Shown here piece after piece: positions 12,489-63,870 of a stretch of DNA of 64,000 nucleotides; within the stretch, counting starts at the first letter, position 1, and the number at the start of each line of letters is the position of its first letter. The notes under the pieces are model-generated. The model worked only from the letters and a program-made list of their open reading frames with translations, was not told where the DNA came from and did no database searches. Source of the stretch: Octopus sinensis (Eukaryota); contig NC_042998.1 of the NCBI RefSeq assembly GCF_006345805.1, forward strand, positions 149,916,001 to 149,980,000, given 5' to 3'. The position numbers and the translations under genes are program-made.

Positions 12489-12745
12489 GGGCATATGGCG
12501 TAGTAGTTAAGAGCGCGGGCTAATAACCCCAAGATTCCAAGTTCGATTCCAGGTAGTTACCTGAATGATAATAATAATAATAATAATAATAACAACAGAA
12601 AAATACCTTAGGAATGAGAACCCGGATTCGAAACTTCCCCAAAACATCTGATGAAGGCTGGAGGGTATGTCAGCCGAAATTTTGTGTTAACAACAAACAA
12701 GATGAGGACAAAATCCGTCAAAATGTAAATAATGTAAATAATGTA
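12489..12745 (+). mobile_element. tRNA-derived SINE with an HHR-like 3' portion and (AATGTAAAT)n tail
   Basis: A box tggcgtagtagtt (12496), B box gttcgattcc (12541), (TAA)n spacer, then aacat-CTGATGA-a-ggctg..cagcc-GAAA-tttt-gtgtt (12643-12688), then a short tandem tail. Confidence 0.7.
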
Positions 12746-13056
12746 CTGAAAATAAAGTTGTTTTATTTTTCCGACCGCCGTTGGAGCATACATTTTTCAA
12801 TAAAGTTATAGTGGGGTCTGAGGGAAAATTGGCTGGGAAACACTACTCTACAGCTAACTCCACAGGCACAAAAGTGCGCGTCATCAAACAACTCTATCCA
12901 AGATACACATAAAGCTACAAAACTGTATTGCACGCCACCCTCGTTCGGTGTCCGGGCTGTTTCGTGTCCAATGGATCCGTCAATTGGCCGGTCCCTCTTG
13001 AAATTACATAAAAAGACAAGGGAGGGGAAAATATAATTAAGCTCTATATTAAGATG

Positions 13057-13156
13057 NNNNNNNNNNNNNNNNNNNNNNNNNNNNNNNNNNNNNNNNNNNN
13101 NNNNNNNNNNNNNNNNNNNNNNNNNNNNNNNNNNNNNNNNNNNNNNNNNNNNNNNN
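13057..13156. other. Assembly gap (100 N)
   Basis: Run of N. Confidence 1.
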
Positions 13157-13434
13157 ATAAGGAGTTATTTTGGAAAACGATGATATAGGAAGTATATAGG
13201 GAAATAAGAGAATAAAAATAAAAGTAAAATTATATGTAGAATGTTACAGTTGCACCAAAAATTACAGTATCATTCCTTTTGTTATTGCTTTTTAATAACA
13301 AAATATGATCTATCGGAATCTATATACCATGGACAAGAAGCATTTCTACCCATTCTAAACAGCACTTTCCTTGGATAATGGAACTGCAACTGTAACAACA
13401 AAAATTCGTCTATAGAGGATGTATCACAACTGCC

Positions 13435-13758
13435 TTCAACTCTCAGGCCGACTAAAGCATTGCGAATGGATTTGGTAGACGGAAACTGAAAGAAATCCAT
13501 TGTATATGTATGTGTTTGTGTTTGTACTTGTTACCCCACCACCACCACCACCACCACCACCACCATTTGATAACCTGTGTTGATGTTTTTATGTCTGTAA
13601 CTTAGCAGATCGTCAAAGGGTAACGATAGATTATGTATCAGGCTTTTAAAAATATAAGTACTAGGTTCGACTCGTTCGAGTAAAATTCTTCGAGACGGTG
13701 CTTCAATATGGTCGTAGTCTAATGACTGAAATAAATTAAAGATAAAAGATAAAAGATA
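13435..13758 (+). mobile_element. 5'-truncated, diverged bipartite SINE family 2 copy
   Basis: ggccgactaaagc..ggatttggtagacggaaactgaaagaa..[TG tract]..cttagcag..aagtactagg..aatgactgaaa. Confidence 0.7.
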
Positions 13759-14251
13759 CATATCTATCTATCTATCTATATCTATCTATCTATCTATCTA
13801 TCTATCTATCTATCTATCTATCTATCTATCTATCTACATCTATCTGTCTGTCTGTCTGTCTGTCTGTCTGCCTCTCTCTCTCTCTCTCTCTCTCTCTCTC
13901 TATATATATATATATATATATATATATATATAGATATATATATATATATATATATATATATATATATATGTATGTTATTACCACAGTGGTGTTCCAGCAT
14001 GGCTGCAGCTGTATAGTTGACATGTATAAAGGATAACCGAACTGAACATATATATATACATAGATACTAAGCAATAAAGGGTTTAGCAACGAATTGCCTT
14101 ACCACATACCGAATTTAGAAATAGCAGTCAAAGAGTTATAGCTATTTCTCTACTAAAAAGGGAGATCTCAGTAAAAACAGCAATTGGAAGGCAGACACAA
14201 ACAGGTAAGAGAGAATGAATTGACGGCAATCTATCATACAATTTTAAGTTA

Positions 14252-14351
14252 TCTACGGACGTACGTTTCGAAATCAAGTTTTTAGGAAAGCATAAGAATT
14301 AAATATTAAATAATTCTATCTCACCAAAACTTCTTTTCTCTTCAGCGTAGA
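14252..14351 (-). ncRNA. Type I hammerhead ribozyme (copy 1)
   Basis: Minus: tctacg-CTGAAGA-gaaa..[extended stem II]..tttc-GAAAC-gtac-GTC^cgtaga. Stem I 6 bp, GUC cleavage triplet. Confidence 0.85.
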
Positions 14352-60664: not shown

Positions 60665-63010
60665 TCTCTCACTCCCACCCTCTCTCTCTCTCTCTCTCTC
60701 TCTCTCTCGATATAATATATATATATATATATATATATATATATATACAAATATATATATATATGTATATATATATATGTATGTATACACACAATATATA
60801 TAAGTATGTATATGTGTATATATGCTTTATATATAGATATCTGCTTCGATACAGAGAGAGACAGAGAGAAACAAAGAAAGACAGATAGGCAGGCAGATAG
60901 ATAGATAGATAGATAGATAGATAGATAGATAGATAGATAGATAGATAGATAGATAGATAGATAGATTCAGCAAAATATCTGGTGCACTGGCAACATGGTT
61001 ACATGAGGCAAAGCTTTCCAAAAGTTACCAAATTTATAGCCGTCTGTATTCCATAAAGAAAATTCCAGCACTGAGAAAGACTGGTTCCTGTTCTTCCAGT
61101 GAATGAATTTAGAAGATATAAAGAAGTTTTATGAATGAAAACACACAAACACTCATACATAGTGCAAACATATATATATGTATGTAGGTACGTATGCATG
61201 CATGTATGTATGCGCGTATGTATATATGTGTGCGTGTTTATGTTTATGTATGTATATATGTATATAGGTTATATTATATTAGTGTATGTATAATCATCTA
61301 TATATTTATACATATATACTTATATATATATATATACATGCACACACACTCACACACATGTATATATATATATATATATATATATATAATATATATATAT
61401 TATATATATATATATATAAATGTATAAATACATGCTTTTGTATAGGTGCATAATATATATATATATATATATATATATATATAGACATAAATATACATAT
61501 ACGTATATACATACAATGAATGCGTACGTGTGTAAATATATTTATAAGGAATGAATGGTCCATGCACAAGTGTGTGTGTGTGTGTGTATGTGTGTGTGCG
61601 TGTGTGTGCGTGTGTGTGTGCATTGATACATATGTAATTAGACAGATACATACACTAATAGGTACTAATACATAGAAACATGCATATACACACACAAGCA
61701 TATGATATTCATAAAGTTATGCAAACATACATTTATATGTGTGTACATGTATGTTTGTGTACACAGCTATGTATATTTGTATACCGCCATTTTTGAAAAA
61801 CTAATCGTTTATTAGGAGCTCCAGTTAAAATATGTGAAACTTTCAGTAACTCCGTCGTCCATATTTGCTCCGACATTTTTATTGTTGTTTGAAATCTCAA
61901 CAAAAGAATCATGTCTGTCGGTTGAAGAGTGGCTTTTGTTGTAACGTCTGAATTTCAATGGACAACACAATGGATAAACATAACCTCCACCAACCTCACG
62001 TAGGAAAACCTCCTACACATACACACATACACATACCTGTATGCACAGACGTATGTATATATGTATATATGTATGAGTGTCAGTCAACGCGTAAATGCAT
62101 ACATGTATATGTGTGTGTGTTTGTGCGCGTGTGTGTACATTTTATGTATGTATATGTATATACACAAGTATACATATATATATATATATGTGTGTATATA
62201 TATATATATACACACACACATACACTTCCCCGTCTCTCCCACTCTCTCTCTCTCTACCACTCCCCTCTCTCTCTCTCTCTCTCTCTCTCTCTCTCTCTCT
62301 CTCTCTCTGTAACAACAAAAGAATGTCGTCTCTGTTCGTGATTGACTTTTGCACTATCGGATGAACTTAGATCAAATAAGGATGGAAGAGAGACACGAAC
62401 ACACACATTCAGACACACGCACGCGCACATATACACAAACACACACACACACGGTGGCTAACAAAACACAAATGCTCTGACAAATACAAAATTTTCTACT
62501 TATATATATGTGTTTGTGTTATATATATCTCATATATGTCATATAGACATTTATATATATGCTTAATATGTATGTATATGTGTATGTATATATGTATATA
62601 CTTATATCTATATGTTTATATATACACACACATATATACACGTATACACATAGACACTTATATGTACATCTATATGTGTGTGTGTGTGTGTGCGTGCGTT
62701 AGTGTTTGTGAGTGAAGGTATATCATTACCTTTCTTTTTCTTATGAGTAGAAAATTTCCCGCGCATCACTGTATCTGCTTTCCCTTGTGTCACTTCGGTG
62801 CACGCTTGAGCCTGGAACCGCTGGAAAATTATTGTAATTCTTTGCTTTTGTAACATTAATCGTAGCTGGTTTCTCTTTACCCTGTTGAAGATTAGATCAC
62901 AGATATCAGTTTTCTGAGCTGTATGTTAGGGTCTACAATCCGTTAGTGACTTCTCTATAGAAACGTTCGGTCTACGGATGGACTGAAACATTTTGAAACT
63001 GTTCACATAA

Positions 63011-63373
63011 GCGCAGGTGTGGCTGTGTGGTAAGAAGCTTGCTTTCCAATCGCATGGTTCCAGATTCAGTCCCTTGGGAAAGTGTCTCCTACTATAGCCT
63101 CGGGCTGACCAAAGCTCACCGAAACTTAAAGAAGCCCGTCGTGTATATATAGATATGTGTGTGTGTGTGTGTGTGTGTGTATCTAGGTGTGTATGTCTTT
63201 ATGTACGTGTTTGCCCTCTCACCCCGCTTGAAAACTGGTTTGTTGTGTTTATGTCCCCGTACCCTAGCGGTTCGGCAAAAACGACCAATAGAATATGTAT
63301 TAGGCTTAAAAATAAGTCCTGGGGTCGATTTGTTCGACTAAAATCCTTTCAGATGGTGCTCCAGCATGGCCAC
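63011..63373 (+). mobile_element. SINE family 2 copy
   Basis: Head, microsatellite and 3' module colinear with 15287-15700. Confidence 0.85.
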
Positions 63374-63495
63374 ATCACGTTTTTAGCGGAAGCATTGACT
63401 GTGTCTTTGATATAGTCTTATCAAATACTCAGGTGAATTCTGATAACCGAAACAAATACTTTTGAAATCTATTTTGTTATAAATTCTTCAACAAG

Positions 63496-63655
63496 GTGCG
63501 GGCGTGGCTGTGTGGTAAGAGACTTGCTTCTCAACCACATGGTTCCGGGTTCAGTCCAACTAGGAGGCATTTGGGCAAGTGTCTTTTACAATAGACTCGG
63601 TTCGGCAAAATCCTTGTGAGTGAACTTGGTAGATGAAAACTGAAAGACGCTGGTC
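63496..63655 (+). mobile_element. 5' module of SINE family 2
   Basis: ggcgtggctgtgtggtaag..ggttcagtcc..ttgggcaagtgtc. Confidence 0.8.
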
Positions 63656-63689
63656 ACATATATATATATATATATATATATATATATAT

Positions 63690-63870
63690 GGACCGCTGGA
63701 CTCTACAAGTTTTTTTTCATTCTTTCTCTGTTTATTTCTTCTTATTCCTTTCTGTTGAAGAGCGTGGGTTCGAAACGTAAAAGACATTCATTTTCCCGAG
63801 CGTCAAACTAATACACTTGCTTGTCGTTCATACACCTGTCTTCGTCTTTTCTTTCTCTATAAATTTCATT
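63690..63870 (+). mobile_element. Short TA-inserted element with minimal HHR-like motif (CUGUUGA)
   Basis: cttt-CTGTTGA-a-gagc-gtgg-gttc-GAAACGTA^aaag (63748-63783). Related to 44494-44710. Confidence 0.6.

Follow-up and report, generated by a model that had tools for sequence, protein, structure and literature searches.

Retrozymes without long terminal repeats (LTRs), called non-LTR retrozymes, have been described in coral, mussel, and axolotl (Cervera & de la Pena 2020, PMC7229834). There, Penelope-like elements (PLEs) are named a "strong candidate" for retrozyme mobilization and circle-templated tandem cDNA is proposed (PMC7229834), and a preprint argues for a PLE origin from co-occurrence and pseudo-LTR (pLTR) similarity (Li, Clavereau & Pollet, bioRxiv 10.64898/2026.07.22.740005; the 2026 preprint below). 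PLEs carry hammerhead ribozymes, including a U3-A8 variant, and a circle has been proposed for them as well (PMC4209133); inverted insertions of PLEs are already known to carry a tail at one end (PMC8557442, PMC3846280); and the PAc protein, in vitro, cuts and extends both strands from two internal, tail-defining sites (PMC11167929). In this study, we analyzed a stretch of 64,000 nt from Octopus sinensis (NC_042998.1, 149,916,001-149,980,000, within a 2.72-Gb genome), referred to as the window, whose hammerhead-bearing elements include two kinds: the 3' ends (pLTRs) of PLEs and the young noncoding retrozymes F1, F2, and F3, with an older relative, F2b.

The retrozyme class is already published; its occurrence in this host group, which we take to be the cephalopods, is apparently new. 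No description of cephalopod retrozymes was found in the literature searched, whose coverage was partial, and supplements or repeat databases may list the families; the sampling listed in the available part of the 2026 preprint contains no molluscs, and a giant squid genome paper lists 235 Hammerhead_1 matches (PMC6962438). Like the metazoan retrozymes of PMC7229834 and the 2026 preprint, F1 to F3 consist of low-GC head-to-tail units that lack open reading frames (ORFs) and contain one type I hammerhead each, their weak or palindromic stem III is suited to cleavage as a dimer, and coding PLEs are present in the same genomes. At its base, stem II of F2 has the U-U mismatch described for axolotl HHR_Amex2, and newt satellite 2 likewise consists of type I hammerhead repeats (PMC7229834). 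The units measure 477 to 593 nt, compared with 170 to 400 nt in PMC7229834, and lie within the 51 to 972 bp of the 2026 preprint. Circles and cleavage have been shown for published retrozymes, whereas those of F1 to F3 are predicted by analogy. What they add to both retrozyme papers, and what is new here, is an insertion anatomy: two fixed 3' ends, A and B, targeting of (TA)n, arms in inverted orientation, and a haplotype particular to each insertion. We did not find these mechanistic footprints in the literature searched, nor, within its partial coverage, a paper joining "twin priming" to retrozymes or PLEs.

Retrozymes and hammerheads of the window

The retrozymes are listed by position in the window, with predicted cut sites; A and B are the two fixed 3' ends described in the next section.

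14064..15210, minus strand: F1 insertion, 1.9 head-to-tail units, site A end at 14064
15195-15210: F1 inverted arm, 16 nt, ending at site B
14252..14351, minus strand: first F1 hammerhead; the core is canonical, stem II is long, stem III is palindromic, and cleavage is predicted after the C at 14258 (GUC)
14839..14938, minus strand: F1 hammerhead copy 2, predicted cut after 14845
58496..59543, minus strand: F2 insertion of 2.2 units in head-to-tail order, flanked by (TA)n on each side and with its 3' end at site A
58634..58681, minus strand: first F2 hammerhead; stem II has a U-U mismatch at its base, stem III is palindromic, and cleavage is predicted after the A at 58641
59109..59156, minus strand: F2 hammerhead copy 2, predicted cut after 59116
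31887..32834, inverted: F3 insertion, 512-nt unit, (TA)n on both sides
31887-32183, minus strand: F3 arm ending at site A
32183-32834, plus strand: F3 arm ending at site B
32048..32113, minus strand: F3 hammerhead of the inverted arm, with one additional U following A9; cleavage predicted after 32053
32510..32575, plus strand: F3 hammerhead of the direct arm, predicted cut after 32570
31337..31758, inverted pair of partial units: F2b, older relative of F2
31548-31613, plus strand: F2b hammerhead, C at position 4

F1, F2, and F3 are built of head-to-tail units, up to eight or more in a row, with one type I hammerhead per unit and no coding DNA between units. The longest ATG ORF of a unit has 30 to 40 amino acids (aa), and GC content is 33 to 35%, below the 45% taken as the bound for non-LTR retrozymes. 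The F1 unit is 588 nt long in the window and has a 593-nt period in other copies; that of F2 is about 475 to 477 nt. Folded as circles, the units of F1 to F3 gave z-scores of -6.4, -6.6, and -4.6 against 30 shuffles; monomer folds of single hammerheads gave weak scores (-3.0 to +1.6) and were given no weight. Copies are dispersed on many contigs with unrelated flanks and are mostly 95 to 100% identical. F1 had 129 matches, mostly 95 to 99% identical, among the best 40 of 1195 candidates; the exact 38-nt F2 hammerhead core occurs 1302 times in the genome (reversed control, 0), and single arrays hold up to 13 exact cores. By these features, F1 to F3 appear to be young, ORF-less, head-to-tail non-LTR retrozymes of the known class. 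F2b copies are 89 to 96% identical, and one 502-nt tandem was seen.

The initial annotation of this stretch had counted about 15 type I hammerhead folds, seven canonical and eight variant or damaged. The canonical set was recovered in full: a strict type I descriptor (CUGANGA, stem II, GAAA, stem III, UH, and stem I of at least 4 bp) returned exactly seven matches in the window, with C3 at 14345, 14932, 32108, 58674, and 59149 on the minus strand and at 32515 and 48714 on the plus strand, a rate far above that in 25 block-wise dinucleotide shuffles of the window (mean, 0.08; maximum, 1). Stem III is self-complementary in all seven. A relaxed scan, with one core mismatch permitted, gave 11 matches (shuffle mean, 1.24; maximum, 3) and gained sites 31548, 51295, 51878, and 63748. 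Sites 12643, 44569, 44929, and 17116 fail the descriptor; the first three align to genomic families in which the fold is conserved. Seven of the eight variant sites are members of genomic repeat families, and only 17116, with two weak relatives (71 to 74% identity) and no stable hammerhead fold, was not confirmed. The C at position 4 is a variant rather than damage, because it is the consensus in the 51.3/51.9-kb and 44569 families; about half of the F2b copies also have it.

The 15 sites collapse to 11 insertions, of which 8 have (TA)n no more than 30 nt from one end, compared with 8% of random positions (for this count, the left edge of the 51.2- to 51.9-kb element was taken from separate inspection). 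The annotation's placement of the elements mostly in or beside (TA)n is correct to this extent, the insertions at 12643, 17116, and 48710 lying elsewhere, and its link of several type I families to PLEs and (TA)n holds.

Two further checks that the annotation had proposed lent the hammerheads no support. A gathering-score Rfam search of the window gave no match (a list by E value was dominated by microsatellite matches to miRNA models); local Rfam searches found no hammerhead family at two canonical sites and, at a third, only RAGATH-1-hammerhead (16.5 bits; E, 1.1), so that no site had a significant match. In an alignment of 18 F2b copies, made without L191, which carries an insertion, the stems were 95.5% paired, one pair had a double change, and within-family covariation was not above that of shuffles (73 to 296 of 500 as high). 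Unrelated families, however, satisfy the same fold with different stem sequences, and with folds far above chance the hammerheads of the window are real.

They also are not peculiar to it. In 40 arbitrary 10-kb stretches of the genome (400 kb), there were 10 strict matches, one of which resembles a chance match, and none in three shuffles; the relaxed scan gave 24 matches, versus 4 to 7 in shuffled sequence. The genome average in this sample is about one strict motif per 40 kb, and the window is therefore about 4-fold richer; by extrapolation, the genome would hold roughly 7x10^4 strict motifs.

Insertion ends and templates of F1 to F3

For each of F1 to F3, the loci studied were the best-scoring 39 to 40 of 836 (F2), 1195 (F1), and 1434 (F3) candidates. 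The F2 set comprised 33 insertions (40 loci less 6 overlapping the same insertion and L014, which is cut and duplicated), the F1 set 28 (32 loci less 3 overlaps or duplicates and L063), and the F3 set 12 (14 loci). Inverted arms shorter than 28 nt were removed by a filter in the counts that follow.

In ribozyme polarity, the 3' ends of F1 to F3 lie at two fixed sites, A and B, with B about 95 to 134 nt beyond A, in the next unit; at both sites the element terminates in a short run of TA that blends into the flanking DNA. The 3' ends adjoin (TA)4+ in 54 of 55 cases for F2 and 39 of 41 for F1. Inner and 5' ends of the F1 and F2 arms are scattered, and 5' ends are not enriched at the ribozyme cut (within 10 nt of it, 3 of 55 for F2 and 2 of 41 for F1; expected, 2.4 and 1.5). 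One arm ending at A was combined with one ending at B in 22 of 22 inverted insertions of F2, 12 of 13 of F1, and 7 of 7 of F3, i.e., in 41 of 42 overall; there was no A+A or B+B insertion, and the F1 exception has an atypical end. Single arms ended at A in 10 of 11 cases for F2, 15 of 15 for F1, and 3 of 5 for F3. The F1 copy of the window was counted as single, yet it has a 16-nt inverted B arm that falls below the filter, and other single arms may therefore hide such arms. The longer arm was the B-ending one in 26 of 34 inverted insertions of F1 and F2 (L003 to L070). F1 to F3 have the end structure of PLE-type insertions, namely, two fixed 3' ends and inverted 5'-truncated copies, and in these families the tandem and inverted-partial-copy structure reported in the annotation was borne out.

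These ends bear on a reading that takes the arrays for satellites arising at the DNA level, for fold-back or Helitron-like elements, or for artifacts of assembly and regards the hammerheads as incidental. The genome is microsatellite rich, the assembly of tandem arrays is difficult, a few insertions are represented twice (L022/L023, L062/L063, and L014), and Rfam is silent; however, fixed 3' ends combined with scattered 5' ends in ribozyme polarity are a signature of reverse transcription, unrelated families each have a hammerhead with their own, different palindromic stem III, and insertion-private variants exclude simple collapse or duplication by an assembler. We regard this reading as extremely improbable.

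Sequence variants within the arrays point to the template. For F1, p-distances between units of the same arm, of opposite arms, and of different insertions were 0.0037, 0.0035, and 0.0088, and for F2 they were 0.0041, 0.0038, and 0.0142. Of the multiunit variants covered on both arms, 77 of 83 were fixed in every unit, and 12 of these 77 were private to one insertion; there were 24 haplotypes in the 33 F2 insertions and 15 in the 28 F1 insertions. Variants shared between insertions were almost all or none within arrays (108 fixed, 2 partial, and 16 single), suggesting a one-unit bottleneck at most jumps. Variants in a single unit outnumbered partial ones, 124 to 13; 52 to 73% of the single-unit variants were transitions, and many of them are probably real mutations. 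We are highly confident that a single haplotype templates both arms of an insertion.

Fold-back of the first cDNA is geometrically impossible in 10 of 34 inverted insertions (L056 left out), in 9 of them by more than 30 nt; therefore, both arms are templated independently. On this count, self-priming fold-back, suggested in PMC3846280, was rejected as an explanation for all inversions. Since arms and units share haplotypes, we also discarded template jumping from the RNA of one locus to that of another. A dimeric circle was considered as the source of alternating variants but does not fit L040 and L033, in which the alternation breaks down along the array. As for A-to-I editing of the template, there was no strand asymmetry among fixed variants.

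Contigs of four runs guessed to be RNA, from four studies, cover all 30 bins of the F1 unit; they showed no start or end peaks and no spanning piece on F1 and were not used as evidence. On F1 (14064-14651), T>C plus A>G changes made up 7 of 11, 8 of 18, 3 of 15, and 13 of 22 variant places in runs X1, X2, X9, and X14; A-to-I editing of a paired RNA is a possible source of these changes in runs that are only guessed to be RNA and have no matched DNA.

Coding Penelope-like elements and the proposed mechanism

Two of the sites, and probably a third, belong to another kind of element.

44776..46365, minus strand: NepA copy, 5'-truncated coding PLE, with GIY-YIG C terminus at 45784-46356 and CX4CX2C linker
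44930..44969, minus strand: NepA hammerhead (site 44929), U3-A8 core variant in the 3' untranslated region (UTR), somewhat decayed
63690..63873, plus strand: truncated PLE-B 3' end, (TA)n on both sides
63748-63783, plus strand: PLE-B hammerhead-like motif, minimal, with a noncanonical family consensus core
44494..44710, plus strand: element of about 215 nt (site 44569), minimal hammerhead with C3 at 44573 and C at position 4, (TA)n on both sides

The GIY-YIG fragment that the annotation had located is present in the window (PF01541; E, 3.7e-6) and belongs to NepA, whose 3' UTR reaches 44776, is broken by microsatellites, and ends in (TA)n. NepA is a large family (20,360 candidates, best 150 scored). 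Full-length copies elsewhere have a single 782-aa ORF with reverse transcriptase (RT; RVT_1 E, 8.9e-8) and GIY-YIG, the latter falling short of the cutoff there (E, 0.0018), which the window fragment passes; nine further long copies are 98.6 to 99.7% identical to L097. With RT and C-terminal GIY-YIG in one ORF and a hammerhead in the 3' pLTR, NepA has the features of EN+ PLEs, and its linker fits the CX2-5CxxC of the Neptune/Nematis type, which makes it a candidate member of the Neptune clade. The PLE-B family (12,767 candidates, best 150 scored) has frames of up to about 1000 aa; its 3' UTR matches 63690-63873 at 74% identity along 185 nt (E, 6e-25) and bears a weak similarity to 44494-44710 (72%; E, 8e-5). 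Sites 44929 and 63748 are truncated 3' ends of two young coding PLE families, and 44569, a relative of which in L153 passes the relaxed scan, probably represents the 3' end of another PLE, akin to PLE-B. At least one further, older PLE family (frames up to about 630 aa) was seen, e.g., at L012:2485-2883, and more PLE fragments lie in L027, L039, L060, L068, and L115.

The annotation had described its sites as lacking ORFs, which is wrong for 44929, located in the 3' UTR of the GIY-YIG fragment itself; its picture of one noncoding system mobilized in trans probably holds for F1 to F3 and fails for the coding PLE ends at 44929, 63748, and, likely, 44569. The converse, that all sites, including F1 to F3, are pLTR remnants of coding PLEs copied in cis, with no trans-mobilized elements, is true for 44929 and 63748 and likely for 44569; the mostly monomeric families F4 and F6 (see below) could also be such remnants, and most animal PLE hammerheads are described as solitary remnants in PMC4209133. 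For F1 to F3 it is unlikely, and as a general account very improbable: their head-to-tail runs have no intervening coding DNA, the arrays carry haplotype lineages of their own, and no unit is joined to a PLE ORF in the 33, 28, and 12 insertions of F2, F1, and F3, PLE fragments being present only in a few flanks, outside the arrays.

F1 to F3 share with EN+ PLEs (PMC4209133; PMC8557442; PMC3846280) partial tandems, an inverted 5'-truncated copy, and a tail at one end; the (TA)n preference and the minimal and U3-A8 hammerheads of EN+ PLEs are also seen in this genome, whose elements of that type are NepA and PLE-B. Unlike EN+ PLEs, F1 to F3 lack ORFs and have a tail of about 95 to 134 nt rather than 30 to 40 nt. 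The closest biochemical parallel is Poseidon PAc of Anolis (Frangieh et al. 2024, PMC11167929), with AT-rich targets, extension of both strands, two internal RT starts, and a protein predicted to be a dimer. The PAc starts are not homologous to the target and show no strand difference, whereas the ends of F1 to F3 all merge with the target via short TA runs, and in 41 of 42 cases a different site was used on each strand.

We consider mobilization of the retrozymes in trans by a PLE-type machinery very likely, and we favor, with moderate confidence, a mechanism in which a single retrozyme RNA, probably circular, is reverse transcribed by a PLE RT-endonuclease that uses the two strands of a cut (TA)n target as primers, at sites A and B of the RNA. 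It can be envisioned that a tandem locus is transcribed, that neighboring hammerheads pair via palindromic stem III and excise a unit-length RNA, and that this RNA is ligated into a circle, as in the published class. A PLE RT/GIY-YIG protein would then bind the tail region of roughly 100 to 130 nt and cut the (TA)n target on both strands, and reverse transcription would be primed internally at the TA-ending sites A and B, one per target strand. Each RT would circle the same template over a variable distance, and the incomplete ends of the two cDNAs would then be linked, in most cases across an overlap of a few bases. The outcome would be a head-to-head array that terminates at A on one side and at B on the other or, if the second priming fails, an insertion with one arm only; later unequal exchange would occasionally duplicate units. 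That the shared template is a unit circle seems somewhat more likely than not.

Similar twin-site priming could instead use a linear, uncut, multimeric read-through RNA, with unequal crossing-over after insertion keeping the arrays long and uniform and the hammerhead largely irrelevant to transposition. Consistent with such a template, 13 variants are partially shared, some alternating; 5' ends carry no trace of the cut site; and the 2026 preprint proposes local amplification into tandems. In addition, hammerhead cleavage was dispensable in the Anolis PAc assay, in which uncut RNA was the main substrate (PMC11167929), and only one of nine Xenopus retrozyme dimers was cleaved in vitro (bioRxiv 10.64898/2026.07.22.740005), two results that speak against priming on circles. 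However, variants shared between insertions are almost all or none within an array, single-unit variants far outnumber partial ones, and units of the same arm are no closer than those of opposite arms, where later expansion predicts that they would be. We consider the linear template unlikely but the strongest of the alternatives.

Priming at A and B of one circular RNA also has to be weighed against several of our own results, not all of them adverse. The best-scoring sampling favors young, long copies of F1 to F3, and the F3 query is biased towards B ends. The 13 variants present in some but not all units of an array, and the ancestral-X-Y-X-Y pattern of L040, indicate postinsertion duplication of units or errors of assembly; moreover, if distances within arms and between opposite arms differ, an error floor could mask it. 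In favor of the mechanism, NepA likewise has two fixed ends, spaced by about 50 nt, which are combined as A+B in L098 and L103; L104, by contrast, looks like B+B, with identical flanks, and L105 is ambiguous. No helper PLE was found among the two PLE families compared: F1 to F3 are unlike the 3' regions of NepA and PLE-B, and the GIY-YIG family cited in the annotation shares no significant sequence with the retrozymes, so that a helper role for it lacks support. In favor of a shared signal, the tails are alike in F1 and F3 (score 53, reached by 0 of 500 shuffles), whose units are unlike outside the tail, and similarity is marginal between F1 and F2b (11 of 500 shuffles reach the score) and weak between F1 and F2 (26 of 500); F2 and F3 tails are not significantly similar (247 of 500), and the NepA tail is unlike the retrozyme tails (75 to 261 of 500). 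The more specific idea that each array records a single reaction, in which a dimeric PLE RT-endonuclease holds one circular RNA, primes at the two sites flanking a conserved tail of about 100 nt, and copies round the circle from both, with the tail and not the ribozyme as the cis signal common to otherwise unrelated retrozyme families, is put forward tentatively, and we lean slightly away from it.

Other elements of the window and significance

The remaining hammerhead-related features of the window are as follows.

48670..48960, plus strand: F4, mostly monomeric, copies 72-87% identical, not beside (TA)n
48709-48767, plus strand: F4 hammerhead, canonical, predicted cut after 48762
51198..51945, inverted pair of partial copies: F6, copies 88-94% identical
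51303-51340, minus strand, and 51885-51922, plus strand: F6 hammerheads, C at position 4 as in the family consensus
12489..12745, plus strand: 12643 element, tRNA-like head at 12494-12555, (AAT)n, decayed minimal hammerhead with C3 at 12648
17116..17160, plus strand: core-like words only

F4 and F6 had no tandem arrays and no contiguous PLE ORF at the 14 loci examined for each; being mostly monomeric or inverted, they do not qualify as tandem noncoding retrozymes; they are older families and candidate PLE remnants. No tandem noncoding units were found in the few copies of 12643 and 44569 examined. A relative of 12643 in L148 has an intact motif that passes the strict scan. The tRNA-like head scores below significance with the Rfam tRNA model (14.4 bits; E, 2.4), and ARAGORN found no tRNA; head and ribozyme are both spanned by about a quarter of the top 40 genomic matches, and at L148:3500-4050 the head lies in an inverted arm. 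The 12643-type repeat may be a Pol III-driven hammerhead element. SM-alpha of Schistosoma is a hammerhead repeat with a SINE-like promoter (SINE, short interspersed nuclear element); in the 12.5-kb element, the tRNA-like head is found in only part of the family.

Flanking sequences happened to contain more than 10 further strict hammerhead families, in most of which stem III is again palindromic and distinct (L106:6920 and 7412; L169:17 and 490; L180; L092; L093; L005; L127; L142; and L146). Some are tandem (492- and 473-nt spacing), and these are likely to be more retrozymes. A frequent family (L098:2420, L137:3171, and L166:3313/6651) has a true hairpin, not a palindrome, as its stem III, and a U-U mismatch closes its stem II; it might cleave as a monomer. 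In the window, 50176-50477 and 50890-51191 (plus strand), which the annotation does not list, are direct repeats of each other (94% identity; spacing, 714 nt) bounded by tracts of (TA)n. They contain the word CUGANGA, after which GAAU stands in place of GAAA; relatives were seen at other loci, twice in L193, and this is possibly another PLE-type element with a noncanonical ribozyme.

Self-BLAST, by which repeats within the window were mapped, and domain searches located other neighbors. At 53391-55039, inverted repeats of about 235 nt (91%) surround a DDE_3 fragment (54334-54792; E, 5.6e-11), which by its features is a decayed Tc1/mariner-like transposon. A fragmented element of the long interspersed nuclear element (LINE) type occupies 55138-58101 (minus strand; RVT_1 at 56035-57120; E, 3.2e-20), and LINE-like 3' pieces resembling it lie at 8534-9151 and 23198-23641. 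A 156-nt inverted repeat (5911-6065/7689-7844; 99%) beside (TA)n has no hammerhead by the descriptor and is accompanied by a 72-nt direct duplication (7574-7645/7827-7898). A very abundant SINE-like family of about 400 nt (68 to 85% identity) often starts beside (TA)n; its copies include 15289-15705, 39180-39595, 43296-43583, 48374-48663, and 63007-63374.

In conclusion, on the order of 10^4 to 10^5 hammerhead motifs appear to be present in this genome, missed by Rfam. For the question of how animal retrozymes enter genomes, F1 to F3 offer a footprint test in the A+B rule and the per-insertion haplotype. Three very young families with hundreds of insertions, together with intact young PLE ORFs, provide reagents for reconstitution in the published PLE assay. 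If true, tail-driven insertion would give genomic support to the proposal that animal retrozymes integrate by PLE-driven rolling-circle copying and would supply a design rule for circular-RNA-templated insertion.

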